38,486 bases of DNA from assembly GCA_000375685.1 (NCBI GenBank), contig AQVQ01000003.1, positions 1 through 38,486 on the forward strand, in the 5' to 3' direction. The notes below the pieces were generated by a model that saw only the letters and a program-made list of their open reading frames with translations, was not told the origin of the DNA and searched no databases. Made by a program: the position numbers and the translations under genes. Origin of the DNA: a crenarchaeote SCGC AAA261-N23. Its GTDB lineage: Archaea; Thermoproteota; Thermoprotei; Gearchaeales; Gearchaeaceae. Of the stretch, positions 464 through 22,691 are shown in pieces. Position 1 is the stretch's first letter; each line of letters starts with the position of its first letter.

Positions 464-1240
464 ATGAACATAGCGATCCTTGATAATATCTTAAATTTTT
501 ATAAATTTGCGGTAACACTAGCGATTTTCATTTTTGCATCCTATTTCGATTTGAAGTTCAGAGAAGTGTCTGATTTATTATGGATTTTACTAACTGTGCT
601 AACTTTGCCAGTAACCATATTTCAGGTTATTTTTATTAATACTATAAACCTCTTTTCCTTTTTGTTTATAATATTAATTAATTCAATAATAGCTGGAGTG
701 ATTTATTATTTAGCTCATTTTGGCCCAGCTGACAGTATTGCAATTATTGTTTTATCTCTAGCTTTACCTTTCCCTCCAAATTTTGGTTTCGGCACATTAC
801 TTATTAAGCCGCTTGATTATCCTTTAGCAGTTGTTTTGAACGGGATAATACTTTCAGTTTTTTATGTAATGGTTAATTTGATTAAAAATATTCGAATGTT
901 CCTTAAAGAAGGAAAATTGTTTGATGAAAATTATACCCTTAAGGATAAAATAGCCCTTTTATTCCTTTCTGAAAAGATTAAGAAAGATAAAATGGAGAGA
1001 GAGAAATTCTATATTTCCTTGATAGTTAATAGGAATGGCAATAAAAAGTTGGAACTTTTTAGAAATGTAAACGAAATGAATTTTGAAGATATTGAATCAA
1101 GAAAGGGTTATTACGAAAGTGATTACTATTGGGCTGAAAATGTTCAGCCTTTTTTGGTTTATTTAACGATTTCACTCGTTTTTACTATAATAGTTGGAGA
1201 TTTGATAACAAGTTTTGTGCTAAGTTTAATTCAATTATAA
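464..1240 (+). CDS. Archaeal prepilin/prearchaellin peptidase (A24 family, PibD/FlaK-like)
   Basis: Multi-TM protein with ASYFDLKFREV (first catalytic Asp), FGPAD (GxGD/GGAD-type second Asp), a soluble insert and C-terminal PFLVYL typical of FlaK/PibD. Confidence 0.88.
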   Translation: MNIAILDNILNFYKFAVTLAIFIFASYFDLKFREVSDLLWILLTVLTLPVTIFQVIFINTINLFSFLFIILINSIIAGVIYYLAHFGPADSIAIIVLSLALPFPPNFGFGTLLIKPLDYPLAVVLNGIILSVFYVMVNLIKNIRMFLKEGKLFDENYTLKDKIALLFLSEKIKKDKMEREKFYISLIVNRNGNKKLELFRNVNEMNFEDIESRKGYYESDYYWAENVQPFLVYLTISLVFTIIVGDLITSFVLSLIQL

Positions 1241-7493: not shown

Positions 7494-8756
7494 TCAGTAA
7501 ATAGATTCTTCAAAAATTTCATAATTTTCTAGTATTTTTTTGCCCACTTCAGCAACTTTTGTTCTATGTTCTTTTTCAGTATATATTCTAAAAATGTTAA
7601 TAACTGGTTTAAGTTCCCTTATCCAGCTACTAACTTCTGATAATTTATAAACTCTTTTATCTCCGTCATTTTTTACTACAGGAATCTCGTAAGGGTCATG
7701 GGTATAGGCATTATGATAAGGAACCGAAGGTAAAGAAGATAAATCGAATTCTATGTTTTCTTTATCTATGCCTACTCTCTTTGAAATGTCTTCCTTAATC
7801 TCATTTAATATCTTATTTAAATTCTCTTGAATAATGTTGCCAACTATTTTTACTTCAAGAGCGCATTTTATTAAATTTCTGCTTTCTATTCTTGATAAAT
7901 ATTTACTACCTTGTTTGCTTTGAGAAATAAGATGCCATAATTTAAAATCGTCCAGATTGAGATATTCATCCACATTAAATTTGTTTAAAAATCCAAACTC
8001 ATCAAGTGTAAATCGGATAGCCTTCAATAAAAGGATTTGAGCTGCTCTCAATGTTTTATGAAAATATATAGCTTCAAAACTCTTTATTCGGCTCAAAATA
8101 AAAATCTCAAAAGTATATAGTGCAGTCATGTTGACTGATAATTCATCATTCCATATTTCCATTGTTGTAACAAGTCTTTCTATATCTATGTTTCCATATC
8201 CTGCTCCACTATGGAAATTATCCCTTTTTATAAAATCAAGCTTATCTGCATCTAATCCGCTTTTAATGATTTGACCTAAATATTTCTTTACAGATTTTGC
8301 CTCCCCAGTTATAATCTCTCCAATTTCTTTTGGATTTATTCCTGCATCTTTAAGCTTGTCTGCGACTTCACTTCTTATTATAATTTCTTTTCCTACATGT
8401 TCATGATCGAGTTTGAAATTTTCAAGCAAAATAGGTTCAAATAAATGGGAAAAAGGTCCATGACCGATATCGTGCAATAACGAAGAAAACCTTATTTTTT
8501 TACTTTCTTCATAACTAACTTCAATAGGCAAGCTAGATAGATATAAGTTTGCTAAGTGCATAGCACCTAGACAGTGTTCAAATCTAGTATGAACTGCTGC
8601 AGGATAAACTATATCAGCAAGAGGTAATTGTCTAACTCTGTGAAGGCGTTGAAATGCCTTAGTATCTATTGCCTCTTTTTCTTCTTCGGTTATATGTATA
8701 TATCCGTAAATTGGATCTTTGATAAACCCCCAATACTTCAGCTGAAAATTAATCAT
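7494..8756 (-). CDS. HD-domain phosphohydrolase (SAMHD1/dNTPase-like)
   Basis: DPIYGYI, FQRLHRVRQL, HTRFEHCLG, LLHDIGHGPFSH, DADKLD, IYFHK. Confidence 0.9.
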   Translation of the reverse strand: MINFQLKYWGFIKDPIYGYIHITEEEKEAIDTKAFQRLHRVRQLPLADIVYPAAVHTRFEHCLGAMHLANLYLSSLPIEVSYEESKKIRFSSLLHDIGHGPFSHLFEPILLENFKLDHEHVGKEIIIRSEVADKLKDAGINPKEIGEIITGEAKSVKKYLGQIIKSGLDADKLDFIKRDNFHSGAGYGNIDIERLVTTMEIWNDELSVNMTALYTFEIFILSRIKSFEAIYFHKTLRAAQILLLKAIRFTLDEFGFLNKFNVDEYLNLDDFKLWHLISQSKQGSKYLSRIESRNLIKCALEVKIVGNIIQENLNKILNEIKEDISKRVGIDKENIEFDLSSLPSVPYHNAYTHDPYEIPVVKNDGDKRVYKLSEVSSWIRELKPVINIFRIYTEKEHRTKVAEVGKKILENYEIFEESIY

Positions 8757-9373
8757 TTTCTTTCCAAAATTTCATCGATTAAATAGTTTGTGACTTTTCT
8801 TATCTTATTTTGAACAGTTTCTAAATTTTCGTTTGAAGATATAACAACAAAATTGAAATCTGAGGCCATTTCTAAAAATTTTTTTCTTATATCATTTAAA
8901 AAATCTAAATTTTCATAAAATTCCTTATCACCGTGCTTCCTTTTTATAGCTGTTTCTGGTTTTACATCTAATAATAGTACCAAGTTGGGTTGAGGAAAAT
9001 TCTTATTCATCTTATAAATTAAATTAAAGTCAACACCATGAACTGATTGATACGCTAAGGTAGAGTAGAAATATCTATCACATACTATTATCTTTCCTAA
9101 TTCTAAATTAGGAAAGATAAAGTTTTTAACATGTAGCGATCTGTCTGCAGTGAAAAGTAAAGCCATTAAGTATGGATCCAGATCCGAACTTGATTTCAAA
9201 TACCCCCTTATCAACTTACCTATTGGGCTGTCGGTAGGCTCTTTAGTATACAAAGCATTAAATTGATTTTCATTTAACCAATCAACCAACAATCTGCTGT
9301 TTGTAGTTATTCCAGCTCCATCTATTCCCTCAATAACAATGAAAATTCCTTTCTTTAAATCCCCATTTTTCAT
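8753..9373 (-). CDS. tmk: Thymidylate kinase (P-loop Lys replaced by Ile)
   Basis: FIVIEGIDGAGITT, TKEPT, LFTADR, DRYFYSTLAYQ, LLDV..ETAIKR. Confidence 0.85.
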   Translation of the reverse strand: MKNGDLKKGIFIVIEGIDGAGITTNSRLLVDWLNENQFNALYTKEPTDSPIGKLIRGYLKSSSDLDPYLMALLFTADRSLHVKNFIFPNLELGKIIVCDRYFYSTLAYQSVHGVDFNLIYKMNKNFPQPNLVLLLDVKPETAIKRKHGDKEFYENLDFLNDIRKKFLEMASDFNFVVISSNENLETVQNKIRKVTNYLIDEILERK

Positions 9374-9744
9374 TATTCTTTTTCCTTCTTAAGTTTCACA
9401 AGCCTATCATAGGCTTCTAAAATGCTGTTTAAAACTTTCATTTTTTCATTTAATTTTAAAATATCATCTTCGTTAGCAATCGATACATTAAGCTCTATTA
9501 ATTTATTAGTTATTGTATTCATTATTTCTTCGATTGCTTGATATCTTTTTACCATATATTCTTCACCATGCTTCACATAAATTACTACCCTTTCACATGA
9601 AGGACAAATTATTTTTCCATCGCGAAGTTTAAATAATGGAACTTTACAATCAGGACAAGAATCACTCAACATTACATTCCCTCCTTTTAACAGTTCAGCC
9701 ATCTTTTTTGTGACATAATCCTTATCACGTTTCTCCATAACCAC
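9373..9744 (-). CDS. UPF0148 / Auto_anti-p27 (SSSCA1-like) zinc-ribbon protein
   Basis: MAELLKGGNVMLSDSCPDCKVPLF...ICPSC followed by a coiled-coil. Confidence 0.85.
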   Translation of the reverse strand: MVMEKRDKDYVTKKMAELLKGGNVMLSDSCPDCKVPLFKLRDGKIICPSCERVVIYVKHGEEYMVKRYQAIEEIMNTITNKLIELNVSIANEDDILKLNEKMKVLNSILEAYDRLVKLKKEKE

Positions 9745-9800
9745 TTTAAACTAATATTAAATAACTTTAATAATTATTTATACAGTCAAAAAAAGTAAGA

Positions 9801-10064
9801 ATGTCTACCAACGAGGAGAAAATAAGGCAGGCAATTGAGATATTGAACAATTTACTTAAGGATATAGGTGTTGCTAGACAAGTTAAAGAGGCATGTAAAG
9901 ATGCTATTAGCTACTTAAACGACAAAAAGATAACCTCCTATGGAATCAGAGCTGCTAATAGCATTAGCAGAATAGAAGAAGTCACACAGGACCCAACGGT
10001 ACCGCCCTATATAAGGACGACACTTTGGAAAGTAATAAGCATATTAGAACAGGTAAAAGATTAA
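9801..10064 (+). CDS. UPF0147 family protein
   Basis: 87-aa helical protein with RAANSISRIEEVTQDPTVPPYIRTTLW, matching the archaeal UPF0147 pattern; typically divergent from UPF0148. Confidence 0.85.
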   Translation: MSTNEEKIRQAIEILNNLLKDIGVARQVKEACKDAISYLNDKKITSYGIRAANSISRIEEVTQDPTVPPYIRTTLWKVISILEQVKD

Positions 10065-11446
10065 TCCAAAATTGGAGTTTGAATATGGAAAATTCCTGGC
10101 TTATCTATTCTTTGGAAACCGTGGCCTCCGAAGTAATCCCTCAGTGCTTGAGTTAAATTTGCATGAAGATTTTCAGTGAACAAGTACAAGATGTAATTCA
10201 AATTGGCTGCCAAAGTCATGCATGGCATGCTTGATTTCAAAGCCGTTGAAACTGTTTTAATCAATCCTCCAATATTTTCTCTTATTGTTTTAATAATAAA
10301 CGTTTCTTCAAAAAGATTGTTATTTTTTTCGCTAATTAAAAACAAATTATTAAGAAAACTACTTCTTATTATACTTCCAGCTCTCCACACCTTTAAGCAA
10401 TCCTTATACTTGAAATCGTAGGAAAAGGTGTTGCATTTTTCTAGAAGTTTAATTCCCTGTAAATAAGACACACAATAAGATAAAGATAATGCGCATTTTA
10501 AATCATCCCTTGTTAAAACGTTTGCATCCCTTTCTTGTTTAAGAGAAAAGAATTTCGATAATTTAACTCTTTCTTCCTTCTTGCTTGATAACATTCTAGC
10601 TATTACTGCAGATTGTATACTAGGTATCGGTTCCTCGGCTTCAAGAGAAGTTTGAACAGTCCATATGCCTGTTCCTTTTTGTTCGGCCTTATCAAGAATA
10701 AAATCCAATAGGTATCCTTTATCTTCTTTGATTTTTAAAATTTCACTTGCAGCGTTAAGAAGAAATGAATTTAATTCACCTTTATTCCATTCACCAAAAA
10801 TATCTGATATTTCTTCATTTGTTTTACCTAGAAGATTTTTAAGTATATAATAAGTTTCAGAAATGCTTTCTATTAAGGAATATTCTATTCCATTATGAAC
10901 CATTTTCACAAAATGTCCTGCACCTCCTTCACCAAAGTATTCGTTACAAAAGTAACCATTATATTTTGCAGAAATATTGTTTAAAATTTCTCTAATTAAA
11001 TAATAACCTTCTTTACTACCCCCTGCCATTATACTTAGCCCATATCTGGCTCCTTCTATCCCCCCGCTTATTCCTAATCCTAAAAATTCAACCCCCCTTT
11101 CTTTTAATACTTTATATCTCCTATCTGTGTCTTTAAAATAAGAATTACCTGCATCAATAATCATATCACCTTTTTCCACTTCCTTGGATAAATTATCTAT
11201 CGATTCATCAACTGGCTTACCTGGTTTAACAAGCATTATTATTATTCTTGGTCTTTTTAGAGATCTGACAAACTCCCCAATAGAGAATGTAGCCTGAACA
11301 TTTTTAGGCTTAACGCTTTTAATGAATAATTCAGTTTTTTCCTTTGTTCTATTGTATATGCTCACTTTATAACCTTTTTCTGAAAACTGTAAGGCCAAAT
11401 TTGCTCCCATTGTGCCTAAACCGAAAATACCTAAATCCGAGACCAC
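10061..11446 (-). CDS. gnd: 6-phosphogluconate dehydrogenase, decarboxylating, NADP-type long form
   Basis: GLGTMG, YNRT (NADP 2'-phosphate motif), DAGNS, ISGG, GHFVKMVHNGIEY, QKGTG, QALRDYFGGH; 461 aa. Confidence 0.95.
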   Translation of the reverse strand: MVSDLGIFGLGTMGANLALQFSEKGYKVSIYNRTKEKTELFIKSVKPKNVQATFSIGEFVRSLKRPRIIIMLVKPGKPVDESIDNLSKEVEKGDMIIDAGNSYFKDTDRRYKVLKERGVEFLGLGISGGIEGARYGLSIMAGGSKEGYYLIREILNNISAKYNGYFCNEYFGEGGAGHFVKMVHNGIEYSLIESISETYYILKNLLGKTNEEISDIFGEWNKGELNSFLLNAASEILKIKEDKGYLLDFILDKAEQKGTGIWTVQTSLEAEEPIPSIQSAVIARMLSSKKEERVKLSKFFSLKQERDANVLTRDDLKCALSLSYCVSYLQGIKLLEKCNTFSYDFKYKDCLKVWRAGSIIRSSFLNNLFLISEKNNNLFEETFIIKTIRENIGGLIKTVSTALKSSMPCMTLAANLNYILYLFTENLHANLTQALRDYFGGHGFQRIDKPGIFHIQTPILD

Positions 11447-11477
11447 GACTTTAAAACTATTTTGACATTTATAAATT

Positions 11478-11550
11478 AGCCTCGGGTGGGATTCGAACCC
11501 ACGACCTTCCGCTTACAAGGCGGATGCTATACCAGCTTAGCTACCGAGGC
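11478..11550 (-). tRNA. tRNA-Thr(TGT)
   Basis: GCCTCGG acceptor stem, anticodon arm TCCGC-CTTGTAA-GCGGA, T-loop GTTCGAATC; no intron, no encoded CCA. Confidence 0.95.
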
Positions 11551-11629
11551 TTTTCTATTTTATAATTTTACTTGAGAAACTATAAATTGGTTTTCATAAT
11601 GAACCAAAAGGAAAGCATTAAATGTATTA

Positions 11630-11714
11630 TGCGGGGGGTGGGATTTGAACCCACGCAGCGCTTACGCACAAGCGCCTCAGGCTTGCCCCTTTGACCTGGC
11701 TCGGGAACCCCCGC
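11630..11714 (-). tRNA. tRNA-Leu(GAG)
   Basis: GCGGGGG acceptor stem, anticodon arm CAAGC-CTGAGGC-GCTTG, long variable arm, GTTCAAATC, discriminator A. Confidence 0.95.
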
Positions 11715-11843
11715 AATACATGTATATTAAGATTCAAAACAAATTTACTTTTAGGATTTTTTATATTTTTCCCTAAAAAATTGATGAAATGAGTATTAAA
11801 CTGCTAGCTTTATTCAACAATTCATTTAGAGAAGGAAGAAATC

Positions 11844-14336
11844 ATGAGGAAGATTAATAAAGCCTCACCTAAGCTATTTAGCGATATACAAGTAAATTTT
11901 AAATGTTTATCAGTTAATGAAACCAACTTAGATATAATAGAGAACTATAAAATAGGATTATCTTACGTAATTATTACATCAGATGGAAGATACCTTATAA
12001 AAGACCCAACAATAGCTCAAAACGAAATTGAAACTTTAAACAACATAATAAACGATCTTGTATACAAACTCCCAAGTATTCAAGTAGATGACAGAAACAA
12101 ATTTAGAGAAGTATTAGAGAAGTTTGGAATATACGAAAATAAACTCATTTATTATTTAGAAAGAGAACTTTTTGGATACGGTGTTTTAGAGCCTTTAATG
12201 AAAGACCAAAAAATTGAGGATATTCAAATTCCTTCACCGAATGTTCCTGCAAGAGTTGTGCACTCTGATTATGGTAAAATGGTAACAAATGTAATTCTAG
12301 ATGAGAATGAGCTGGACCTCTACATAGAGAAACTTGTTTATAAAAGTGGGAAAAGCGTGAGCATGTTTAAACCAATGCTTTCAATTAAATCTTCTGATAC
12401 AGCAAGAATAACTGTAACTTATAAAAAAGAAGTAGGTTATAAAGGAAGTAGCGTAACTATAAGAAAATTTCCTGAAAATCCTTGGAGTATAACACGCATA
12501 TTATGCAAGAATACGATAGATGTGGTAAGTGCCGCATACCTAATGAAATTGATAGAGAATAAAAAAGCAGTTTTAGTAATCGGTGGAATGGGTGATGGTA
12601 AAACGAGCCTAATAAACTCCCTGACAAACTTCATACCGCATAATTCTACTGTCATAACAGTTGAAGACTCAGTTTGCGGAGATGCATACATTTTATGTAT
12701 ATTAGAAAATGAATTAAAATTTATAAAAATTGGCGAGTTGATTGAAAGTTTATTCTTAATGAATAATAAAGAAAAAGAAGGATTCTTAAAAGTTGATAAT
12801 CTATATGTCTTAACAATTGATGAAAATAATAATATAAATTGGAAAAAATGTGATTATGTTTATAAACATACTGTTTTTAAAGAATTCGTCAAAATTATTA
12901 CAGAATCAGGAAAAGAGATAGAAGTAACAGCTGATCATTCACTATTTAAATTCGATGAAAACAGTAAAACTCTGATACCTGTTAAATGTTCTCTATTAGA
13001 AGTAGGTGATACGATTGCCGTATTGGCTAATTTAAATTTAGAAGATTTAATCCTTAATTCTAATTCACTAGCGATTCGGTGTCAAGATCCAAACATTATA
13101 TCAAGTTTTAAATCATCAAGCTACTCAGGTTCTGTAAACACTGAATTCAATAGCGCATATGAAATCTTACAAACGAATATAAACGAGGCAAAAGCAACAA
13201 GACTTTTTGAAAAGCTGATTTATAGCGGAAAGGAGGCAAGAGAAGAAATCCTAAACAATTTGGTGGAGGAAAAAGCAGATAACAAATACAAATTTATCAG
13301 AGTGAAAAGCAGGGATGAAATGATAGCTATCCAGACTTTACTGCTTTTACTTGGAATAGAAAGCATTGCGATCAAGAAAAGTAAAGGGAATGACGAATAT
13401 TATGAAATTATAATTAATGACCATAGTTTAATAGATAAAATTGCATTTTATCATAATTACCATATAAATAAAAATATAAAACACAATTGTATAAAAAATG
13501 AAAAAATTATAAATGTTGAAAAATCATTTAAAAGAGAAACAGTATATGATTTAACAGTATTAGATACAGGAAAATTTATTGCCAACAACTTCATTTGTCA
13601 CAACACACCTGAGCTAAGATTAGCGCATCAATATTGGATACCATTGGTAACGAGGGAAAGCATAACCTTAGATGAAAAAGGGAACATAGATATGTTCTCT
13701 TTAGTCAAGCACGCATTAAGAATGAGTGGAGATTACTTGATCGTAGGTGAAGTTAGAGGAGAAGAAGGCAGAGTATGGGCGCAAGCGATAATGACAGGCC
13801 ATGGAGGTATTACTAGTCTTCATGCTGAATCACCAAGCTCTGCAATTGAAAGATTATTAAGCGATCCAATAAAGGTTGAAGCTGGAAGTTTAAGTTCATT
13901 ACATTCAATAGTTGATATACGTAAAGTATCGCAATACAAGGAAAATAGTAAAGGCAAAAAAATTGTCACATATCATAGAAGAGTGACAGGCTTATACGAT
14001 TTAAATTTTTCCACATCCACTAAAGAAGCAAAATTCTATAAAGTAACTTCTTACGATGGTGAAAATGATACATTTAAGACTATTTCTCTAGAAGAAATCA
14101 TCAAACTTCCTACAATGATCCAAATTATGGAAGAAAAAGGTATCGATGAGAAGAAATTACTGAAAGACCTTGAAACTAAAGTAAAATTCCTCAACAAAGT
14201 TAAAGAAATAGCTTTAAGCAATAATGAATACTTAGATTACAGCAATATTTGTAGAGTTATTTGGGAGTTTTACAAAGATCCTGATACTTTCAAGTTTGAT
14301 GAAATTCCCAAGAGAACCGAGATAGTTCTCGAATAA
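11844..14336 (+). CDS. Type IV pilus/type II secretion assembly ATPase (VirB11/FlaI/TadA family), intein-containing
   Basis: GYGVLEPLMKDQKIEDI, TIRKF, Walker A GGMGDGKTS, Asp box TVED|TPEL split by the insert, Walker B LIVGEVRGEE, His box TGHGGITSLHA; 518 aa after removing the intein. Confidence 0.93.
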   Translation: MRKINKASPKLFSDIQVNFKCLSVNETNLDIIENYKIGLSYVIITSDGRYLIKDPTIAQNEIETLNNIINDLVYKLPSIQVDDRNKFREVLEKFGIYENKLIYYLERELFGYGVLEPLMKDQKIEDIQIPSPNVPARVVHSDYGKMVTNVILDENELDLYIEKLVYKSGKSVSMFKPMLSIKSSDTARITVTYKKEVGYKGSSVTIRKFPENPWSITRILCKNTIDVVSAAYLMKLIENKKAVLVIGGMGDGKTSLINSLTNFIPHNSTVITVEDSVCGDAYILCILENELKFIKIGELIESLFLMNNKEKEGFLKVDNLYVLTIDENNNINWKKCDYVYKHTVFKEFVKIITESGKEIEVTADHSLFKFDENSKTLIPVKCSLLEVGDTIAVLANLNLEDLILNSNSLAIRCQDPNIISSFKSSSYSGSVNTEFNSAYEILQTNINEAKATRLFEKLIYSGKEAREEILNNLVEEKADNKYKFIRVKSRDEMIAIQTLLLLLGIESIAIKKSKGNDEYYEIIINDHSLIDKIAFYHNYHINKNIKHNCIKNEKIINVEKSFKRETVYDLTVLDTGKFIANNFICHNTPELRLAHQYWIPLVTRESITLDEKGNIDMFSLVKHALRMSGDYLIVGEVRGEEGRVWAQAIMTGHGGITSLHAESPSSAIERLLSDPIKVEAGSLSSLHSIVDIRKVSQYKENSKGKKIVTYHRRVTGLYDLNFSTSTKEAKFYKVTSYDGENDTFKTISLEEIIKLPTMIQIMEEKGIDEKKLLKDLETKVKFLNKVKEIALSNNEYLDYSNICRVIWEFYKDPDTFKFDEIPKRTEIVLE
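12669..13604 (+). mobile_element. Intein (312 aa) with degenerate LAGLIDADG remnant
   Basis: Block A SVCGDAYIL, block B IEVTADHSLF, block F VYDLTV, block G FIANNFICHN followed by Thr; removal restores ITVEDTPELRL. Confidence 0.93.
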
Positions 14337-16171
14337 TGCTTACAAAGAGAAAATACGAGTTCTTAAGCACTAAAATATTTTCAAATATTCCATTTTTGAA
14401 TATATGTGTTCCACTAATTATTTTAGTATCAGTGATAACTGTTAGCTTTCTTAACGGTATAACATTAATGCATATTATACTTTTAATCGTTTTCTTATTT
14501 TCCATAATTCTAGTAAATAAAAGAATAGAAACAATATTCAATTTTTTTAATAAGAAATTTAACTTAATAGAAAATTACAAAACAAAGTTATTTTATTCTG
14601 AGATAAATGAGAATCCGTTTGAATATAGCAAAAAGATGGTATTATATTTACTATTATATACTATATCTTCAATTCTTTCTTTATTCATGATTCTTTATTT
14701 TAAGTTAAGTTTTTGGTTCGTAATAATCGTTATTTTAGGCAACGCTTATTTAGTGTTCATATTATTTTATCCTTCGATAAAAACTAACCAAATTAGTAGT
14801 GGAGTTGAAAAAGAAATCCAAATGCTTTATGCACTGCTATCATCATTTCTAACAGTAGGTATCAACCCTTACCTTACTTTATCAGTGATTAATGAAAATC
14901 CATTCTTTAGCTTTTTTAAAAAAGTCTTCAATCAGATTGAAAAAATAAAGATTCTTTACATTCTTAATCCGATGGATGCAATTGCAAAGTATTCTAGAAT
15001 CGCTCAAAGTGATCAATTGCGAGACTTATTACAAACAATTTCTGCGAGCGAGACTATAGAATTGCATAAATTAATCAAGAATAAAATGATAGATAGCTTT
15101 AAACTTCTAGAAAAGAGAATTGAGAACTTACTTGAGAAGTTTAATATTCTACTAGCTTCCCAACTTTTGGTGTTTATATTGGTTCCAATTACAATGATCG
15201 TCACAGCTATTTTTACTGGATTAGATTTGGGTTTAGCTTTGGTCATTTTCATTTTGGTTCCTATCTTATTTTTTGTAGCATTCTTCTTTATGCTTAGAAC
15301 AAGCATACCTTCACATTTAAGTCTTCAAATAAGCCTTGATTATAAGTATGGGGGGATTTTGCTTATAGCTATTACACCCTTACTTGGAATTTTTTATCTA
15401 AAAGGAATTATAGGATTGGATAATCTAGTGTTTATAGCTTTAATGTCCTTCCTACTTTGCATGTTTTATTTTAATTATAAAAAACAGAGTATATACGAGA
15501 TTCTAATCAGTTCAATACCTAAAGTATTTCGAGAAATTGCTGAGGAAACAAAAAAAGGTATAAGTCCTTCGCAAGCATTGGAAAAAGTAATAGAAAGAGT
15601 TGAAGAAATCGTCAAGTTATTCATAAAAAAGCTGCTATTCTCTAAAAGATTGGGTTTAAGCATTACTTCAATTTTGACAAAGGAAAATCTTCCATTACTG
15701 TTTAAGCAATTATTCAGCATACTTGAATACACAGATCAGGTAGGTGCTGATCCATCTATTTATAATGATTTGGCAGATTTTGTTGAAAGATTAGATAATA
15801 GTAGAAGAGTCTATAAAATTAGAACCAGATTTTTCAAATATTCTAGCTACTTTGTTACAGCATTATTAGGAGTTTCAATTTCGATATCAATATCAGTCTT
15901 AGGAAGTTTAATTAATGCATTCGGTTCTATTGTCACAATATACACAATTTCCTCTTTTTTGTCCTTCAACACTGCTCCTTATTGGATTTACTTAATAGCA
16001 AACATATCAGCTTATATCAACTCTGCAATGTTAGGCTATTTAGGTGGATCATTAGGATATGACCATGTAGAAGGATTTAAGAATGCGATGATATGCATGT
16101 TAATTGCCTTTTTTGTTTTACAAACTTTCAATCTGATTGGTATCTGGGGAAGTAATGGAAAGTTCTATTGA
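14336..16171 (+). CDS. Pilus assembly membrane platform protein (TadC/FlaJ/T2SSF-like, two repeats)
   Basis: Many TM segments alternating with two soluble domains (e.g. IPKVFREIAEETKKGISPSQALEKV); TAATG-coupled to the ATPase. Confidence 0.8.
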   Translation: MLTKRKYEFLSTKIFSNIPFLNICVPLIILVSVITVSFLNGITLMHIILLIVFLFSIILVNKRIETIFNFFNKKFNLIENYKTKLFYSEINENPFEYSKKMVLYLLLYTISSILSLFMILYFKLSFWFVIIVILGNAYLVFILFYPSIKTNQISSGVEKEIQMLYALLSSFLTVGINPYLTLSVINENPFFSFFKKVFNQIEKIKILYILNPMDAIAKYSRIAQSDQLRDLLQTISASETIELHKLIKNKMIDSFKLLEKRIENLLEKFNILLASQLLVFILVPITMIVTAIFTGLDLGLALVIFILVPILFFVAFFFMLRTSIPSHLSLQISLDYKYGGILLIAITPLLGIFYLKGIIGLDNLVFIALMSFLLCMFYFNYKKQSIYEILISSIPKVFREIAEETKKGISPSQALEKVIERVEEIVKLFIKKLLFSKRLGLSITSILTKENLPLLFKQLFSILEYTDQVGADPSIYNDLADFVERLDNSRRVYKIRTRFFKYSSYFVTALLGVSISISISVLGSLINAFGSIVTIYTISSFLSFNTAPYWIYLIANISAYINSAMLGYLGGSLGYDHVEGFKNAMICMLIAFFVLQTFNLIGIWGSNGKFY

Positions 16172-16553
16172 GACCGTTGTAAGTGCTTTCATAATAATAG
16201 TGATCATAACATGGTCTTTAAGCAGCGTAACATATTTATTACATATCTACCAACAGCAAGAAATTACATTATTCTTGAATAGTTGTGCAAAGAATATTGC
16301 TTTAGCCTATTTAAACACAAAACCATACAATAATGTAAATCTTACGGGTTTCTGCGAAGGAAAAATAGGTAAAGGACTAATGTACTTTATTAAAATTAGT
16401 TTGTTCTATATAGTTAACGGTGACGTAAATGTCAAGGTTATATATCAAAATGGAAGTGAACCCAGCAACTTTGTAAACAAGGCGGTTTATTATGCATGCT
16501 TGTTGAAAGGTAATTTAACCTGCGTTGAAGTTTACGTATATGGCGAAACTTAG
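16155..16553 (+). CDS. Minor pilin-like protein
   Basis: ATG at 16155 preferred over 16137; MESSIETVVSAFIIIVIITWSL N-terminal hydrophobic helix then a small globular domain with Cys residues; pilus operon context. Confidence 0.6.
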   Translation: MESSIETVVSAFIIIVIITWSLSSVTYLLHIYQQQEITLFLNSCAKNIALAYLNTKPYNNVNLTGFCEGKIGKGLMYFIKISLFYIVNGDVNVKVIYQNGSEPSNFVNKAVYYACLLKGNLTCVEVYVYGET

Positions 16554-16950
16554 ATCACAAGCAAGAATAATAGAAGCACTCCTTTCTTCTCTCATCATAA
16601 TTGGAGCTGTAACGATTTCTTATACGTTCTACACGCCTTTTTCCAGTTACAGCATAAGTACCGAATATGGAATACCTAGTAATGTAATAGGATTCATAGT
16701 AGAGAATGGTTACCTTAAATATGTGTTTGAAAATCCAAGTGTGTTGATAAGCGTTTGTAATGAAATAATACCCCAAGATTTCGGTTTCAAGATTACCTTA
16801 TATGATGAAAACTGGAATATTATATGGTCATATCAAACTGCTGATTTTACTTCACAAAATGAAATATCCGCTTATCTTATAATTAATGGTTTTTATGAAG
16901 AAAATTCAACTGGTTTCTTTATTTTTGTTGTTTCCATAAGTAAGGCATGA
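16540..16950 (+). CDS. Minor pilin-like protein with class III-like signal (+1 Gln)
   Basis: ATG at 16540; MAKLRS|QARIIEALLSSLIIIGAV. Confidence 0.7.
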   Translation: MAKLRSQARIIEALLSSLIIIGAVTISYTFYTPFSSYSISTEYGIPSNVIGFIVENGYLKYVFENPSVLISVCNEIIPQDFGFKITLYDENWNIIWSYQTADFTSQNEISAYLIINGFYEENSTGFFIFVVSISKA

Positions 16951-17678
16951 GAAAAGCACAAGTATTGATTCCTATAGTTGCGATACTAGCTATAATGTTG
17001 ATATTATTCTCGTTATCTCTAAGGGAAATCGGTGTTGATTATATTATACAAGGTTCTGAACCAACTAGCAAATATATCCAACTTTTTTATTTCATTGAAG
17101 AATCTTTAGCTAATGGCACTCAAACAGGCTTCAAATACATCAATATGAATTACAATAAAAGCGATTTTAATCCTAAAACCAACATATTAGCGATTTATTT
17201 AACCAAAATTTTTGCACTGCATTACTACAACTACACCCTCAATAAGGCTTCTGCAATAATAGGCCAAACTGATATGAAATTTTACATCAATTCTACAAGT
17301 AATCCATATTTGCTTTACTTGAATGGAAGTTTAAATAAAGGCAAAGGTTCGTATTTCAATCTGACATTTTTCAAGAATGGTATATTTAGACTTAATTTTT
17401 ACATGATAGTTAGCGAAGCAAAAATTGTGATCTCCAATTCTAGCATATATAATTATTATTTAGTTATCTTGAACTATAAATATGAAGTTTATTTTGGAAA
17501 CGAAAGAATTAACATTACAAATCAATTTGAGACTTTAGTTAACGGAAGTGAAAATGGCAATTTTGCTTATCTAAGAGGCCAAACATATTTAGAATTTATA
17601 CTACCTGCAAACTGCATAGGAAAAACGATCATAGGCTTAAAGGATTCCTATGGAATTATTGGCTGGGTGCTAGTGTAA
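16947..17678 (+). CDS. Minor pilin-like protein with class III-like signal (+1 Gln)
   Basis: MRKA|QVLIPIVAILAIMLILFSL; many N-x-S/T sequons; ATGA overlap with the upstream gene. Confidence 0.7.
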   Translation: MRKAQVLIPIVAILAIMLILFSLSLREIGVDYIIQGSEPTSKYIQLFYFIEESLANGTQTGFKYINMNYNKSDFNPKTNILAIYLTKIFALHYYNYTLNKASAIIGQTDMKFYINSTSNPYLLYLNGSLNKGKGSYFNLTFFKNGIFRLNFYMIVSEAKIVISNSSIYNYYLVILNYKYEVYFGNERINITNQFETLVNGSENGNFAYLRGQTYLEFILPANCIGKTIIGLKDSYGIIGWVLV

Positions 17679-18127
17679 TGCCATCAATTATATTATCAAA
17701 CATAGTGGTAACGGTAAGTTTGATCATTTTAATATCAATATCTTTCTCTCTTAGTTACGCTGAATTGCTTAACTATTACAGTTATTTGGATCAAGATGTT
17801 TTAATTAAAGATTTAGTCAAAATTAATAATGCAATAAATTATATATACGGAAAAATTCAAACATCCATAAACATCGAGTTAATACTAACGCCCGGAAGCA
17901 GAATAGACTTCTATCTAAACGGAACAATTATGTTTTACCCTTCAGTAGATAGCAGAACTTTGAAGTCTTTTATTCTTGATCCTAACAATCTAATTGTCAA
18001 TATCGGTTCAAATTTTATATATTATAAAGTAACCTTCTCTGGAGAGAGAGTTGTAGCAACACAAATGAGCCATATAAGTTTACTTTATAGTAAGCCAAAC
18101 GAGATTGAAGTTTTCTTATCTAATTAG
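17678..18127 (+). CDS. Minor pilin-like protein without a basic leader
   Basis: MPSIILSNIVVTVSLIILISISF, then an amphipathic helix and beta-rich domain; TAATG coupling. Confidence 0.55.
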   Translation: MPSIILSNIVVTVSLIILISISFSLSYAELLNYYSYLDQDVLIKDLVKINNAINYIYGKIQTSINIELILTPGSRIDFYLNGTIMFYPSVDSRTLKSFILDPNNLIVNIGSNFIYYKVTFSGERVVATQMSHISLLYSKPNEIEVFLSN

Positions 18128-18310
18128 AAATACAGTTTAATTGGTGAAATGAGAAAGTTAAGTATTGTTAATAGCTAATATCCTTTATTCAATTGATTCA
18201 ATGAGTCGTTGAAAGGAAGATTAACGGCTTAATATTTCCATCTAATATGCTTTGATTTGATCAATTAAATCTTTTTAATTCGCAAAAAAGAGAATCAAAA
18301 GACTAGTCGT

Positions 18311-18320
18311 TTTTATAAAA
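18311..18320 (+). promoter_or_regulatory. Putative internal TATA box for the adhesin sub-operon
   Basis: TTTTATAAAA near the end of the ~210 bp gap, shortly before the starts at 18336/18339. Confidence 0.4.
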
Positions 18321-18335
18321 ACTTTTAAAAAAATT

Positions 18336-20333
18336 TTGATGAACTTAAGCAACTTCAGGACAAAGTTATTGATATTACTAACATTATCCTTGCTTATAGC
18401 AGCTACGATAAACATCCCAACCGTTTTTTCAAACCTAAATGGTCCTTTACTATGTTTTAGAGGATATCTCATAACGCCTATAGGTACGGAGCAATCTTAT
18501 GGCCAAGGGGCAATTATTAACTTCGATGGTAGCACTTATGTTTTAAACTCATGTACAGATTACAAAGTTGGGATTTTCAATCTGATTGCATACGTTGATT
18601 TGGATTACATATTTGTTAAATGGAGTTCAAGCTCAAATATAGTAATAAAAAATCCGTATAATTCTTCTACTTCAGTTCAGCTTTTATCACAAACTTCTGA
18701 TAGATCATACATAAATTTATATATTAGGAAACCTTGGCTGTATTTTCATACATATCTCATTACATCAGTAGGATATGAAGTAGCAAAAGATGCTCAAATA
18801 ATTTTCAATGGGGGTATTTACAATGACAACGGAGTAACTGCTTACGTTCCTGGAACATATACCATAAAAGCTAATTATCCAAGTAATTATAAGTTTGACC
18901 ACTGGGCAAGTTCAAGCACAATCTTAATAAATGACGTTCTAAGTCCTTCAACAACTGCAACACTAAGAATACAGAGTTTAGCAAAAGATCAGCAAATCTC
19001 GCTATATATTAAAGGTAGACTTTTTAATGTGACTTTCTTTCAAAAAGGAGTCCCAAGCAATCTAATATGGAAAGTATCAATAGGAAATATAACAAAGTCT
19101 GCGCTAGGTAGCAACGGTATAAGCTTTAATCTACTTGAAGGAGATTATCAGTTTAAAGTAACACCAATTGCTTTTGATAACAATTTATATTATCCTAACC
19201 CTGATAGTGGAGTTATATATGTTAGAGATAACATGGTTGTAAATATAACATTCTACATGATACCTGAAAATAATGGTAATCCTTCTCAAATTAGCAATTT
19301 AAACAAAGTTCAAGCTAAGTTATTTATTATAGACCCTAATCGAAATAGTTCAAATCTAACTAAAAATGATTACTTTATTGGCATAGTTGGAGAGAAAATT
19401 AAATTTGTACTTTATTTGAATATTCAAGGAATAACTTTATCTCTTTTATCTCCAATAAAGATTCTAATTGAAAATATAATTATTAAAGCAACTCCAAGCA
19501 ATGCTTTTTTAGTTAACAACTATAATTCAACTGAAATACAAACTATAATAAAAATACCAAACATAACTTTAAATAATACGTTAAGCGGTTCTACATCTTT
19601 ATACATAATTCTTAATAACCAAAATAATATTGCGCTAAGCTTTAACAAAGGAAATTACACTGTGGACCTTACTGCGAATCTTGCTATTTATTACAATAAA
19701 ATCTCATCTATAATTCTACCAATTCAAGCATCTACAAACTTAATAATCGATGAAGCAAAAATAGCATTAAATGATTCACTATATTTCAACGATCAATTAA
19801 TTTTGATATTTAGATATTATTGGAAAACACTGAATTATCCTATTTACAATAAAAGTGGATTACTAAGCGTTATTATACTACCTTTTGGCGTAGAAGGAAA
19901 TTTCATAGATAACCGTGGTTATCTTAAGGTAACAATTAATGAAAACGTTGTGAAAAACTTGGTTAACGAAATCACTGGTCAAATCGAAATTGTAGGCATA
20001 TTTTTCGATGGAGCAAATGTTTATAACAGTATTAGCTACATCAATTACTCCACCGTCGCAATTAGCATGATAAATTCAGATAAAAGCTACGGTGTAAAAA
20101 TTAAGGTTGTTAATTTTGCTAATTTAAGGCCTATAAGTGATGCGGAAGTAATGGTAGTTATTAATGACATAATTTTTGGAATTTACAAAACAGATATGAA
20201 CGGGGAGATAAATATTATTTACGGTGGTTCAATTTATTCCCTACGTGTAGCAATATATTATTTACATTCCAATAACTTTATACTGCTACCCTCTAAGTAC
20301 TCTAACGTAACACTTTTGGTATCTGGTTTATAG
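18336..20333 (+). CDS. Large secreted beta-rich surface glycoprotein / putative pilus adhesin
   Basis: N-terminal signal/anchor; two tandem ~95-aa repeats with Y.F..W; a VTFxxxGVP..LIWKV module as in thermopsin-associated domains; C-terminal PISDAEV...TDMNG prealbumin-like motif; many sequons. ATG at 18339 is an alternative start. Confidence 0.7.
   Translation: MMNLSNFRTKLLILLTLSLLIAATINIPTVFSNLNGPLLCFRGYLITPIGTEQSYGQGAIINFDGSTYVLNSCTDYKVGIFNLIAYVDLDYIFVKWSSSSNIVIKNPYNSSTSVQLLSQTSDRSYINLYIRKPWLYFHTYLITSVGYEVAKDAQIIFNGGIYNDNGVTAYVPGTYTIKANYPSNYKFDHWASSSTILINDVLSPSTTATLRIQSLAKDQQISLYIKGRLFNVTFFQKGVPSNLIWKVSIGNITKSALGSNGISFNLLEGDYQFKVTPIAFDNNLYYPNPDSGVIYVRDNMVVNITFYMIPENNGNPSQISNLNKVQAKLFIIDPNRNSSNLTKNDYFIGIVGEKIKFVLYLNIQGITLSLLSPIKILIENIIIKATPSNAFLVNNYNSTEIQTIIKIPNITLNNTLSGSTSLYIILNNQNNIALSFNKGNYTVDLTANLAIYYNKISSIILPIQASTNLIIDEAKIALNDSLYFNDQLILIFRYYWKTLNYPIYNKSGLLSVIILPFGVEGNFIDNRGYLKVTINENVVKNLVNEITGQIEIVGIFFDGANVYNSISYINYSTVAISMINSDKSYGVKIKVVNFANLRPISDAEVMVVINDIIFGIYKTDMNGEINIIYGGSIYSLRVAIYYLHSNNFILLPSKYSNVTLLVSGL
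18444..19016 (+). repeat. Two tandem diverged protein-level repeats (aa 37-132 and 133-227)
   Basis: PLLCFRGYLITPIG...YIFVKWSSSSNIVI...INLYIRK versus PWLYFHTYLITSVG...YKFDHWASSSTILI...ISLYIKG. Confidence 0.8.
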
Positions 20334-20364
20334 AAGGTTAAATAATAAAGCAAAAAATTTTTTT

Positions 20365-21057
20365 GTGAATGTATCAGATTTATTAACTAAAGCATTAATC
20401 ATTGTATTTGTTTTATCGTTTGCCACAATATCGGTTTATTACTTCTATTCTTCAAACTATTATATAATTTACCATAAATCGCCACAGTTTAATAAACAGG
20501 ATATTCTTAATTATCTTGCAAGAACAATTTATAGTGCATACTTCAACAATTTGTACGAATTCTCTGTACTAGTTAATCTAGGAAACAGTACATTATATTT
20601 AGATAATTTGCTTAATACCAGCTTAACCTGTGAAACTAGATTTCAATACATGCAAATACCTTTATCTTATATAATAATAGGATTTGCGAGCAACTTTTCA
20701 GCAATATCTAATGTTTTAGTATCGAATAAAACTGTTTATTTGATTAATGGAGATTTTTTGATTCCATTGGTATTTTATAATATCAATGTTACAAAGTTGC
20801 CCAATAACCGTACTTTATATTATATACAAGTAATTTATCTCACTTCAAATTCTTCATACTTAATTCAAAACGAAAATGAAATAACCTTTGATTTCATTAA
20901 AAAAGTGGCACAAGTTACTTGGATTATATTAGATAACGATATCCTTGTTTGCAAAATAAACAATAACGTTGTCTTCAATATCATCATTTTTAAAGGAGAT
21001 GTTGTTCAATTCAGTTTTACTAAGATAGAAATCAATATCCTAAAAGCAACTGTATAA
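20365..21057 (+). CDS. Minor pilin-like protein
   Basis: GTG start; MNVSDLLTKALIIVFVLSFATISVYYF hydrophobic N-terminus, beta-rich body with sequons. Confidence 0.55.
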   Translation: MNVSDLLTKALIIVFVLSFATISVYYFYSSNYYIIYHKSPQFNKQDILNYLARTIYSAYFNNLYEFSVLVNLGNSTLYLDNLLNTSLTCETRFQYMQIPLSYIIIGFASNFSAISNVLVSNKTVYLINGDFLIPLVFYNINVTKLPNNRTLYYIQVIYLTSNSSYLIQNENEITFDFIKKVAQVTWIILDNDILVCKINNNVVFNIIIFKGDVVQFSFTKIEINILKATV

Positions 21058-21455
21058 TGGATAAAGCTGTAATAGAGATAATTAATACATTCGCGTTGAT
21101 ATTTTTAGGGGCGATTTTGTTAACGTCTTCTTTTATAATGTTCTATAACTTTCAAAATGTAAATTATTCAATTTTTCTGAAAAACTATAAAGAAAAAGTG
21201 GAAAACATTTTGAACGAAATATATTTTTATAAAAAATACTATAACTCGAATATCAGCTTTGAAATTTACTCTGAATACCTTGTCTTGATAAATGTTGTTA
21301 ATTCTACATTAATAAGAATATCGGTAGCAAGTTATTCAGAAAATGTTACTTCTATATTACCTGTAATAGGTGGAGGAATAGGATATTACTTTATCTTCTC
21401 ATATTCAAATAACGAAATAAAAATATTTCCAATTAACAATACGGTAGCGGCTTAA
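21057..21455 (+). CDS. Minor pilin-like protein with class III-like signal
   Basis: MDKA|VIEIINTFALIFLGAILL; TAATG coupling. Confidence 0.65.
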   Translation: MDKAVIEIINTFALIFLGAILLTSSFIMFYNFQNVNYSIFLKNYKEKVENILNEIYFYKKYYNSNISFEIYSEYLVLINVVNSTLIRISVASYSENVTSILPVIGGGIGYYFIFSYSNNEIKIFPINNTVAA

Positions 21456-21482
21456 ATATTAAAATAAAAAGACGAAGTAGCG

Positions 21483-21914
21483 ATGAGAAAAGTTATTAAG
21501 AAAAGACGAGGAGATATATCTGGTCCAATAGTTGCAGTATTATTAATAATCGCCTCTATTGCAATCGCAAGCGTAGTAATTACTTGGATGTATAGTTTAG
21601 GCACATCAGCTAGCAAACAAGGTGCGCTGCTTGTTGTTGGTACTCCTGTGATCGCAAAGAATGGAAATAATTATACATTATATATAACAGTTAAAAATTC
21701 TGGTAACGTTCCTGTAAACGTAACAGGAGTTATAGTCAATGGAGTACCTTGGACAATCATTTCTAATACACCAAATTTAGTAACTGTAGGGGTGGGCGCT
21801 GTGGTATCCTTTAGCGCTTCTTACAGCACTAGCATAACCTTAAATACCAATGTTAACGGGGTATTACAAACAACTGCAGGTACTATACCTTTTGTAGCAA
21901 TAGTACAAAGTTAA
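21483..21914 (+). CDS. Probable major archaeal type IV pilin
   Basis: Basic leader MRKVIKKRRG, then DISGPIVAVLLIIASIAIASVVITW, and an Ig-like head (LYITVKNSGNVPVNVTGVIVNG); last gene of the locus, followed by T-tracts. Confidence 0.85.
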   Translation: MRKVIKKRRGDISGPIVAVLLIIASIAIASVVITWMYSLGTSASKQGALLVVGTPVIAKNGNNYTLYITVKNSGNVPVNVTGVIVNGVPWTIISNTPNLVTVGVGAVVSFSASYSTSITLNTNVNGVLQTTAGTIPFVAIVQS

Positions 21915-21932
21915 TTTTTTTATTTAATTTTT
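21915..21932 (+). terminator. Archaeal oligo-T terminator after the pilin gene
   Basis: TTTTTTTATTTAATTTTT immediately after the stop codon, before the convergent tRNA. Confidence 0.55.
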
Positions 21933-22018
21933 TGCAGGGGGTGGGATTTGAACCCACGAAGGCCTTTAGCCACTGGATCTTGAGTCCAGCCCCTTAGACC
22001 ACGCTCGGGCACCCCTGC
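21933..22018 (-). tRNA. tRNA-Leu(CAA)
   Basis: GCAGGGG acceptor stem, anticodon arm CTGGA-CTCAAGA-TCCAG, long variable arm, GTTCAAATC. Confidence 0.95.
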
Positions 22019-22019
22019 A

Positions 22020-22691
22020 TTAGGGTGTAATTATTGTTCCAATATCATCATTTTCTAAAGCTCTTTTTATATTTTCCTCTTTTTTTCCGTTAAATACTCT
22101 TACAACTATTTTTGACCTCCTAATTATATGTAAAGATTGTGGATCAAAAAGCTTGTATTCTCCTGCAGAAATGGATATGGATTTCTCTAGAATTTTTGCT
22201 AATTCATCAATACTTAATTTTTTGATAAAAACAGCATCTTTGTATAAATTAGGATCCTTATCATAAACACCCTCGACATTAGTTGCATATAACAAAGATG
22301 CCCTACTTAATTCAGAAACTAAACATGCTACAGTAGTTGTCGATATTGAAGGAAATAAACCGCCGCATATTATCCTTTTCCCCTCGTTTATTTTTTCGAC
22401 CAATTCATCAAAAGTTTTTACGAAAGAGAAATCTGATTTATTGCTTAAACTTTCATGGATTATCTGCGCGTTAATTTGACTTATATGTATACCAATAAAA
22501 TCTAAATACGATTCGGGTAAACTTAAAGATCTTCCGATATTTATATAGCTTCTAGCCCATTTGCCTCCTCCTATTACGATATGAAAATTCTTGTATTTTG
22601 AAGAAAGTTTGTCAAGAATTCTTGCGTAGCTTATAAAAGTTTCTTCACTTTCTGTTATCAGATGGCCGCCTATTTTTAAAACCCACTGCAT
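22020..22691 (-). CDS. pyrH: Uridylate kinase (archaeal type)
   Basis: VLKIGG, VIGGGKWARSYI, LDFIGI, STTTVA, TNVEGVYDKDP, AGEYKLFD, IGTII. Confidence 0.92.
   Translation of the reverse strand: MQWVLKIGGHLITESEETFISYARILDKLSSKYKNFHIVIGGGKWARSYINIGRSLSLPESYLDFIGIHISQINAQIIHESLSNKSDFSFVKTFDELVEKINEGKRIICGGLFPSISTTTVACLVSELSRASLLYATNVEGVYDKDPNLYKDAVFIKKLSIDELAKILEKSISISAGEYKLFDPQSLHIIRRSKIVVRVFNGKKEENIKRALENDDIGTIITP

Follow-up and report, generated by a model that had tools for sequence, protein, structure and literature searches.

A ten-gene type IV filament locus with candidate minor pilins and a candidate adhesin in an uncultured Thermoproteota archaeon

Gene content and probable expression of the locus

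Ten genes that together form a type IV filament (T4F) locus lie between two tRNA-Leu genes on a 38,486-nucleotide stretch of DNA from the crenarchaeote SCGC AAA261-N23 (AQVQ01000003.1), here called the window. This stretch makes up contig C3 of a genome that is 67% complete, 1.2 Mb in size and about 31% GC. The ten open reading frames (ORFs; 11844-21914) are all located on the plus strand and mostly overlap one another. An initial annotation, made from the sequence alone, had described them as ten same-strand genes that are mostly translationally coupled, and both its coordinates and the coupling hold. TAATG junctions can be read directly between the ATPase and platform genes (14336), p243 and s149 (17678), and p230 and s132 (21057), and an ATGA junction joins s141 to p243 (16947). 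The likely starts are at 16155 for s138 (MESSIE...), at 16540 for s141 and at the ATG at 18339 for the large protein. With the corrected starts, platform and s138 overlap by 17 nt and s138 and s141 by 14 nt, and real intergenic gaps are limited to three, one of 211 nt between s149 and the large protein and two more of 31 nt and 27 nt. The features are listed below, with lengths in amino acids (aa).

11629..11715, minus strand: tRNA-Leu(GAG), upstream boundary (ARAGORN)
11844..14336, plus strand: secretion ATPase of the VirB11/FlaI type, 830 aa with intein, 518 aa when spliced
12669..13604, plus strand: intein of 312 aa (ATPase residues 276-587)
14336..16171, plus strand: platform protein, polytopic, TadC/FlaJ-type, 611 aa
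16155..16553, plus strand: s138, small, putatively pilin-like accessory protein; start corrected from ortholog alignments
16540..16950, plus strand: s141, the best-conserved accessory protein; start corrected from ortholog alignments
16947..17678, plus strand: p243, family-specific accessory protein
17678..18127, plus strand: s149, small accessory protein
18339..20333, plus strand: predicted Sec-type secreted multi-domain surface protein of 664 aa, candidate adhesin
20365..21057, plus strand: p230, family-specific accessory protein
21057..21455, plus strand: s132, small accessory protein
21483..21914, plus strand: predicted major pilin, 143 aa
21932..22019, minus strand: tRNA-Leu(CAA), downstream boundary (ARAGORN)
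464..1240, plus strand: candidate class III signal (prepilin) peptidase, FlaK/PibD-like, outside the cluster

The ATPase matches Pfam T2SSE with 74.2 bits (cut-off 24.9), and its Walker A motif and a restored VEDTPEL motif can be read directly. Its top model in NCBIfam is FlaI (240.9 bits; cut-off 550), followed by the BasE exception model (164.3 bits; cut-off 1000). The VEDTPEL motif is interrupted between VED and TPEL by an intein (Pfam Intein_splicing, 59.2 bits), which matches archaeal inteins in the PDB. The residues for splicing are intact on direct reading, namely Ser1, a TADH block, and the HN that ends the intein ahead of Thr+1, so that the precursor may well splice. Once residues 276-587 are removed, the length equals the 518 aa given in the initial annotation for the intein-free protein. 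The intein is present in the window and in G001, which belong to one genus, and in 0 of 6 whole-readable ATPases from five other genomes of the host's family. It diverges faster than its host protein, with 42% identity between the window and G001 as against 68-70% for the exteins. A weak LAGLIDADG-like stretch lies inside it (Pfam E 0.064).

The platform protein contains several hydrophobic or transmembrane segments and aligns to positions 14-463 of the 484 of the NCBIfam model UpsF (E 1.8e-25; 89.6 bits, cut-off 400); its score for Pfam T2SSF, 15.5 bits, is under the cut-off of 25.2. Orthologs are found in 7 of 8 other family genomes.

The product of the last gene has the leader KRRG/DISGP (the slash marks the cleavage site), and the canonical class III motif is present in 10 of 10 orthologs. 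A profile of 16 pilin sequences matches eight solved archaeal pilin chains, best 8q30 (E 4.2e-11), the others being 8fjs, 8fk7, 8tib, 6w8x, 6nav, 6w8u and 8gi2. Because of these matches the 143-aa protein is, as judged from its sequence, a genuine archaeal type IV pilin. The N-terminus of 8q30 is that of the pilin in the Aap-type locus L224, and the profile is stronger on Aap-type pilins (5e-16, 2e-15) than on UpsA (8e-8, 3e-6). The best NCBIfam model for the pilin is UpsA, with 17 bits (cut-off 130). A T2SSE ATPase, a TadC/UpsF-like platform and a pilin matching solved archaeal pilins bear out the initial assignment of these genes to a type IV filament.

The locus had also been called self-contained. 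This holds in part, for the cluster contains no prepilin peptidase gene. In the genome, which is 67% complete, a single weak candidate was found, 10.6 kb upstream (464-1240). It scores under all cut-offs (FlaK 67.5 bits, cut-off 330; Arc_PepC_II 21.6 bits; Peptidase_A24 19.6 bits). Its residues 21-253 align to the FlaK structure 3S0X (E 3.3e-9), it has several hydrophobic segments, and Asp is kept at both 3S0X sites that we take to be catalytic. The gene adjoins those for PolB (1573-4158) and an XPD-type helicase (4197-6035).

The locus is probably expressed. In each of six metatranscriptome runs, 26-91% of the words sampled from the stretch are present, and contigs from four runs of four studies, compared with positions 11300-22200, fall into three blocks. 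The first extends from 11709-11798 to 18103-18206, the second from 18340-18432 to 20907-21263, and the pilin lies on a separate contig from 21480/21500 to 21952/21962. The uncovered gaps at 18108-18340 and 21263-21480 hint weakly at transcript ends. By eye, A/T-rich TATA-like boxes precede 11790, 18340 and 21480 by about 25 nt, and a T-run follows the pilin gene. Word depth on the pilin contig is 287, 200, 126 and 22 in the four runs as against 4-31 elsewhere and is the highest in all four, a weak hint at most, as contigs from RNA libraries show neither strand nor level, may include DNA carry-over, and give in their depth a poor measure of expression. These hints of three transcription units and a high pilin level are weak but coherent.

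Conservation in the family and spread beyond it

All ten genes occur in the same order, together with the intein, in G001, and all ten families recur in permuted order in five further family genomes (G002, G004, G005, G006 (twice) and G008). Such recurrence means that the ORFs have not come together by chance. A shared gene order, which the initial annotation had proposed to look for in relatives, is therefore found within the genus, while the two other genera carry the same set permuted: large protein, p230, s132, pilin, ATPase, platform, s138, s141, p243, s149. Two blocks are conserved, s138-s141-p243-s149 behind the platform gene and p230-s132 behind the large protein, with p230 always between the large protein and s132. 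The upstream tRNA-Leu(GAG) is also found in G001 and G006, and the downstream tRNA-Leu(CAA) is conserved beside the locus in five other family loci. Because the order is permuted while the tRNA-Leu flanks are kept, the gene set behaves as two modules swapped in place at a fixed chromosomal site.

A mobile island between the tRNA-Leu genes was considered and rejected: there is no integrase, the GC content equals that of the surroundings, and the site is the same in other genera. The "repeat" flanking the locus is the mere similarity of the two tRNA-Leu genes and not a repeat of a mobile element.

Several observations concern individual loci of the family. In two genera, a gene for a 250-aa TFIIB-like protein directly follows the pilus locus (for example L020, 8031-8783, with equivalents in L021-L024); its Pfam Zn_Ribbon_TF score of 23.1 bits is under the cut-off, and the gene was not found in G000 or in the G001 locus. 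Genome G006 holds two paralogous copies of the whole locus (L024/L039 and L025/L041). In the second copy, a membrane anchor is found at the C-terminus of the large protein, whose gene lies downstream of the pilin gene. More distant relatives (L035, L042, L043) possess only pilin, ATPase and platform, with ATPases 43-52% identical. In L035 (8381-10007) the ATPase ortholog is split into two overlapping ORFs of 211 and 312 aa, which may reflect a frameshift or an assembly error.

A search for related loci with the single platform protein found nothing. A platform profile applied to 401 sampled Thermoproteota genomes gave matches at E <= 1e-25 in 37 of them, comprising 2 of 2 genomes of family f1, 27 of 32 of family f19 and a few others. 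Six of 18 proteins matching the s141 profile carry the NCBI names Ca. Methanomethylicia, Methanomethylicaceae or Methanosuratincola, and f19 is for this reason taken as the Methanomethylicia group. An assignment of f19 to the Desulfurococcaceae was rejected, as the named protein matches say Methanomethylicia. The f19 loci combine pilin, ATPase and platform with homologs of s138, s141, s149 and s132 plus secreted proteins (one or two, 800-1467 aa). In one complete genome of this type (G048; L128 and L231), the pilin-ATPase-platform core and an accessory cluster lie about 1 Mb apart; the latter encodes s138 and s141 homologs and secreted proteins of 947 and 861 aa.

Homologs of s138 and s141 adjoin pilin-ATPase-platform modules in Methanomethylicia-type and other genomes. 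The s141 profile matches in 119 of the 401 genomes, mostly over the N-terminal 90 residues, and full-length matches occur mainly in f19. Among 80 named T4F loci fetched with the ATPase profile, 15 have s141 downstream of the platform, including eight from Bathyarchaeia, one from Ca. Culexarchaeum nevadense, Ca. Methanomethylicia and two metagenome-assembled genomes labelled "Nitrososphaerota". Weak homologs of s149 adjoin s141 in L130, L131 and L133, and weak homologs of s132 are found in L127, L129, L132 and L133. For p243, p230 and the large protein, no relatives were detectable outside the family.

Relation to characterised filament systems

The descent of the ATPase was addressed with two trees, one of 38 rows under the mixture model LG+C20 and one of 57 rows under LG+G4. 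Ups reference loci were identified by UpsF over the NCBIfam cut-off. The other reference labels (archaellum, Aap, Bas, two-TadC, TadC-flanked, MinD-linked, TFIIB-linked) are our own, given by eye from gene content and N-terminal motifs. In both trees the window ATPase falls with full support (SH-aLRT 100; 100/100) into a clade of 17 rows made up of the family, the three-gene relatives and the Methanomethylicia-type loci. This clade excludes the sampled ATPases of all reference groups, Ups/Bas included; the two UpsE rows lie outside it. It is sister to UpsE plus BasE in the 38-row tree (SH-aLRT 95), a relation that is not resolved in the 57-row tree. The phylogeny suggested in the initial annotation thus places the window ATPase outside the FlaI, UpsE/BasE and AapE groups, in a clade of its own. 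Other loci with s141 (L134, L135, L237, L238) have ATPases that fall elsewhere, which implies that the accessory set pairs with more than one ATPase lineage.

With FlaI as the top NCBIfam model for the ATPase and no other archaellum found in the family genomes, the locus could be a divergent archaellum serving motility. However, the score is far under the cut-off, and the ATPase lies outside the FlaI clade, which itself is supported at 100/100. Archaellin, FlaF/FlaG and KaiC-like FlaH have no match at E <= 0.1 in the ten proteins (Pfam, NCBIfam), and the pilin matches adhesion-type pilins. None of the nine family genomes has a FlaI over the cut-off; the highest score is 378 bits. An archaellum is therefore very hard to credit.

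Ups and Bas of the Sulfolobales (clade or subsystem 4I) have the nearest characterised ATPases in the 38-row mixture-model tree. They resemble the window in their single long platform gene, and the order pilin-ATPase-platform recurs in the simpler relatives L042, L043 and L231. They differ in having two to three PilA-type pilins and no set of the s138/s141 type, and the window misses all the curated cut-offs. True UpsF over the cut-off occurs in 4 of 151 genomes, all of another family. In the family that holds these loci, the s141 profile matches in 1 of 15 genomes, with one weak, stop-interrupted match (E 3.4e-4).

An Ups-like pilus for cell-cell recognition in DNA exchange, rather than for surface adhesion, would account for the sister position of the clade in the smaller tree, for UpsF and UpsA as the best models of platform and pilin, and for the presence of PolB and an XPD-type helicase 6-10 kb upstream. 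The sister relation is nevertheless not resolved in the larger tree, and the UpsF and UpsA scores are only a fraction of those required. The locus has no large cytoplasmic UpsX-like gene, and the pilin profile favours Aap-type pilins over UpsA. PolB and the XPD-type helicase are ordinary housekeeping genes and are not adjacent. Such a role is unlikely, and the adhesion pilus set out in the last section is preferred.

Aap of Sulfolobus acidocaldarius has a pilin of the same broad family, which is all that it shares with the window. The window differs from it by its ATPase clade, the lack of an AapX-like ORF of about 600 aa, six extra small proteins and the large secreted protein. The Epd system of Methanococcus maripaludis (system 1), as outlined in PMC13705601, is likewise a single-strand T4F operon (11 genes); it requires several minor pilins besides the major one and includes adhesin-like proteins. 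According to the same paper, it differs from the window in possessing two platform genes and a dedicated peptidase, EpdA, and in having a headless major pilin whose gene lies outside the operon. The accessory proteins of the window show no sequence relationship to those of Epd (no Pfam or NCBIfam matches).

The closest resemblance is to the "complex" loci of clade 4. PMC4858521 (Makarova, Koonin & Albers 2016) describes, in silico, Thermoproteota loci in which the core is joined by three to six small secreted proteins whose origin cannot be traced and by a large surface protein, all encoded downstream of the platform gene; still more complex loci are described there for Thermoproteales. The entry for Thermosphaera aggregans in Table S4 of that paper gives TadC, arCOG08836 twice, arCOG03511 (871 aa), arCOG08837, arCOG10426 (130 aa, FlaFind-positive) and arCOG10615. 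In PMC13705601 (Sivabalasarma & Albers 2026), accessory components of subsystem 4A are encoded after the platform gene, and an adhesin often accompanies them. These 4A-type loci share with the window an ATPase plus TadC, a PilA-family pilin, small proteins encoded behind the platform gene and a large protein of the surface or adhesin kind; the resemblance of the accessory genes is one of size, order and FlaFind flag only. Bathyarchaeia, Culexarchaeum and Methanomethylicia loci, which have s141 in the same position as the window, add to the likeness. In contrast, the window has a single long platform rather than two, its p243, p230 and large protein have no detectable relatives outside the family, and its ATPase lies outside the clade of the Aap ATPase, which the two papers put in or near 4A.

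The locus is real and conserved, and it is none of the characterised T4F systems. The exclusion of archaellum, Ups, Aap and Bas made in the initial annotation is upheld by the missed cut-offs and the ATPase trees. Its further claim of an undescribed system was overstated, since such loci appear in PMC4858521 and PMC13705601 and s141 recurs beside platforms and across many genomes as counted above. The ATPase clade, p243, p230 and the large protein are lineage-specific; the architecture and at least s141 belong to a widespread, catalogued and experimentally untouched class. Searches of the literature on pili in Methanosuratincola, Methanomethylicia and Verstraetearchaeota yielded no description of this system, and the main text of PMC13705601 mentions neither these taxa nor inteins.

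Accessory proteins and proposed function

None of the six accessory proteins (s138, s141, p243, s149, p230, s132) has a Pfam or NCBIfam match. All seven small families, the pilin included, have exactly one hydrophobic segment, and it is N-terminal. The initial annotation had noted these hydrophobic N-termini, and a single N-terminal helix is what pilin-like proteins should have, so that the six may be pilin-like as well. The N-terminus of s138 reads M-E-x-x-x-E, with M1 and Glu6 invariant in a 16-row alignment that includes loci from outside the family. Protein s141 has a near-canonical class III N-terminus, [KR][GA]Q-A-R-I-I-E, with the acidic residue in nearly all of 16 aligned sequences, which would place Glu or Asp at +6 of the mature protein. 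Class III-like motifs are also present in p243 (K-A/Q-V-L, 8 of 8 orthologs) and in s132 (D-R-A/I-V-E, 8 of 8 orthologs; N-terminus MD(K/R)A-I-V-E).

N-x-S/T sequons reach 2.3-3.8 per 100 aa in s138, p243 (3.7), p230 (3.5), s132 and the large protein. They are less frequent in the pilin (1.4), s141 (0.7), s149 (0.7), the ATPase (0.5) and the platform (0.2).

Profile searches of the PDB with s141, s138 and p243 gave nothing significant. In the ESM Atlas, p243 scores 0.90 to archaeal clusters without a name, which is a lead only, and its family HMM (hidden Markov model) has no match outside the family. An AF2 model of s141 (mean pLDDT 85) predicts a helix (residues 2-31), a low-confidence linker (32-39), three short helices and a four-stranded antiparallel sheet, a layout of a helix plus an alpha/beta head.

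The large protein had been annotated as a surface protein of 665 aa; apart from its length, which is more likely 664 aa, this description fits. It has a signal-like N-terminal hydrophobic segment of the Sec type and no pilin motif. A search of 1.84 billion representatives found 11 full-length relatives among the 150 matches listed. The other listed matches share a repeat of about 65-90 aa, which is present twice in the window protein (roughly residues 45-235) and recurs up to 23 times in giant proteins of up to 5792 aa. Fifteen of the 150 listed relatives were scanned with Pfam, and 9 of the 15 carry Flg_new_2 (divergent InlB B-repeat) over the cut-off; one of the nine also has the bacterial pilin N-methylation motif. 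The window protein itself reaches only 14.5 bits for Flg_new_2. Ig-like matches in its family are all sub-threshold (bMG3 in 3 of 14), and its ESM Atlas scores are at most 0.85, to clusters of the CarboxypepD_reg/Big/SpaA type, again a lead only. Because of the Sec-type N-terminus and a repeat common to giant repeat proteins, Flg_new_2 carriers among them, the protein is predicted to be a secreted multi-module surface protein. It could be an adhesin attached to the filament.

In bacteria, the minor pilins FimU-PilVWXE of type IVa pili act together with PilY1, and type II secretion systems have GspHIJK; these, which PMC13705601 also cites, serve as the working analogy for the accessory set. The similarity lies in a block of at least four small pilin-like genes beside a large Sec-secreted non-pilin adhesin, and in an acidic residue near the start of the helix (Glu6 in s138, Glu/Asp at +6 in s141). 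No sequence or fold match was obtained in support of it, and the archaeal host, unlike these bacteria, has a single membrane and no secretin. Weak domain matches also suggest that the large protein consists of B-repeat or Ig-like modules and not of a propeller as in PilY1.

On balance, the locus of this uncultured Thermoproteota archaeon from hot springs probably specifies a type IV filament that does not serve motility, in the first place an adhesion pilus with a minor-pilin set for priming or the tip and a secreted adhesin. According to this model, the ATPase precursor would splice out its intein and thereby restore the VEDTPEL motif. The pilin leader would be cut off at KRRG/D by a peptidase of the FlaK/PibD type, with the product of the gene at 464-1240 as a candidate, and the ATPase and the single TadC-type platform would polymerise the 143-aa pilin. 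The six single-helix small proteins could form a complex of low-abundance pilin-like subunits at the tip or base that primes assembly. This set might also couple the Sec-secreted 664-aa protein to the filament as a binding module, after the manner of bacterial minor pilins and PilY1. The function in adhesion is suggested by that analogy.

Several points weigh against this model. The filament is known from genes alone, adhesion is argued by analogy, and the limits of the RNA contigs given above apply to its expression. The peptidase candidate lies far beneath every curated cut-off. No charged leader is present in s138, s149 and p230, which makes their cleavage by a class III peptidase doubtful. 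Comparison of the seven small families with hhalign revealed no convincing homology, the top probability being 40% (p230-s132). A Foldseek search of the PDB with the s141 model found nothing at E <= 0.001. VIA gave best Z scores of 8.0-8.2 to uS3 and PAS/Cache-like domains, with no pilin among the rows listed; a Z of about 8 is the level regarded as a common arrangement. The N-terminus of the large protein is of the Sec type and not of the pilin type, and synteny is its sole link to the filament. One of its paralogs (L041) has a C-terminal membrane anchor instead.

Some of these points would suit a short pseudopilus or bindosome-like assembly, without a long fibre, that inserts surface proteins (the 664-aa protein, p243, p230) into the envelope or pushes them through it. 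Six of the seven proteins with an N-terminal helix are not pilin-like by sequence, and the modelled head of s141 resembles ligand-binding domains of the PAS/Cache type (Z 5-7). Among the NCBIfam models, BasE ranks second for the ATPase, and in the 38-row tree Bas and Ups group together beside the 17-row clade. The argument in PMC13705601 that T4F bases commonly serve binding proteins points the same way. However, the pilin closely matches filament-forming pilins at the profile level and lies on by far the deepest RNA contig, Pfam and NCBIfam find no ABC transporter or substrate-binding-protein family in the ten genes, and the PAS/Cache-like Z scores are at the level of a common arrangement. 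A pseudopilus is thus quite improbable, and the adhesion pilus remains the favoured model.

A wider proposal, less likely than not, is offered tentatively. The 17-row clade might represent a T4F subsystem that is unnamed in the current A-I scheme and common to an uncultured Thermoprotei family and the methanogenic Methanomethylicia. In this subsystem, s138 and s141, with their acidic position 6, would form a priming set of the bacterial style that couples a Sec-secreted non-pilin adhesin to the fibre, an equivalent in archaea of minor pilins with PilY1, and in one genus the motor would depend on intein splicing.

Outside Sulfolobales, haloarchaea and Methanococcus, archaeal T4F are documented by little more than gene catalogues. 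Among the "complex" loci of Thermoproteota, the present one is compact and complete and seems to be expressed, with an apparent three-block split of transcription, defined accessory families, and s138 and s141 traceable across phylum-level distances, which makes it a practical test case. Methanomethylicia have recently been brought into culture. Because the same system is present there, the roles of the accessory set and the large protein could be tested on real filaments. Should the accessory set turn out to be a complex for priming or for the tip, what is established for bacteria would extend to single-membrane archaea; otherwise, the locus is one more uncharacterised member of a very diverse family.

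Two further T4F-type ATPase sequences occur among the contigs of G000. On contig C12 (about 8500-13000; L002), a second, very divergent ATPase of 579 aa with a Cys-rich N-terminus adjoins genes for a TFIIB-like protein and two small membrane proteins, and a pilin-like ORF of 77 aa. This arrangement resembles "subclade 4D" of Makarova 2016 and is also found in G009, G048, G111, G013, G027 and G039. On contig C28 (4615-5166), 183 aa of a T4F-type ATPase are encoded, a fragment that matches the family profile at E 1.3e-38. The other ORFs of this contig look compositionally different, and the fragment may be a truncated gene or a binning contaminant.

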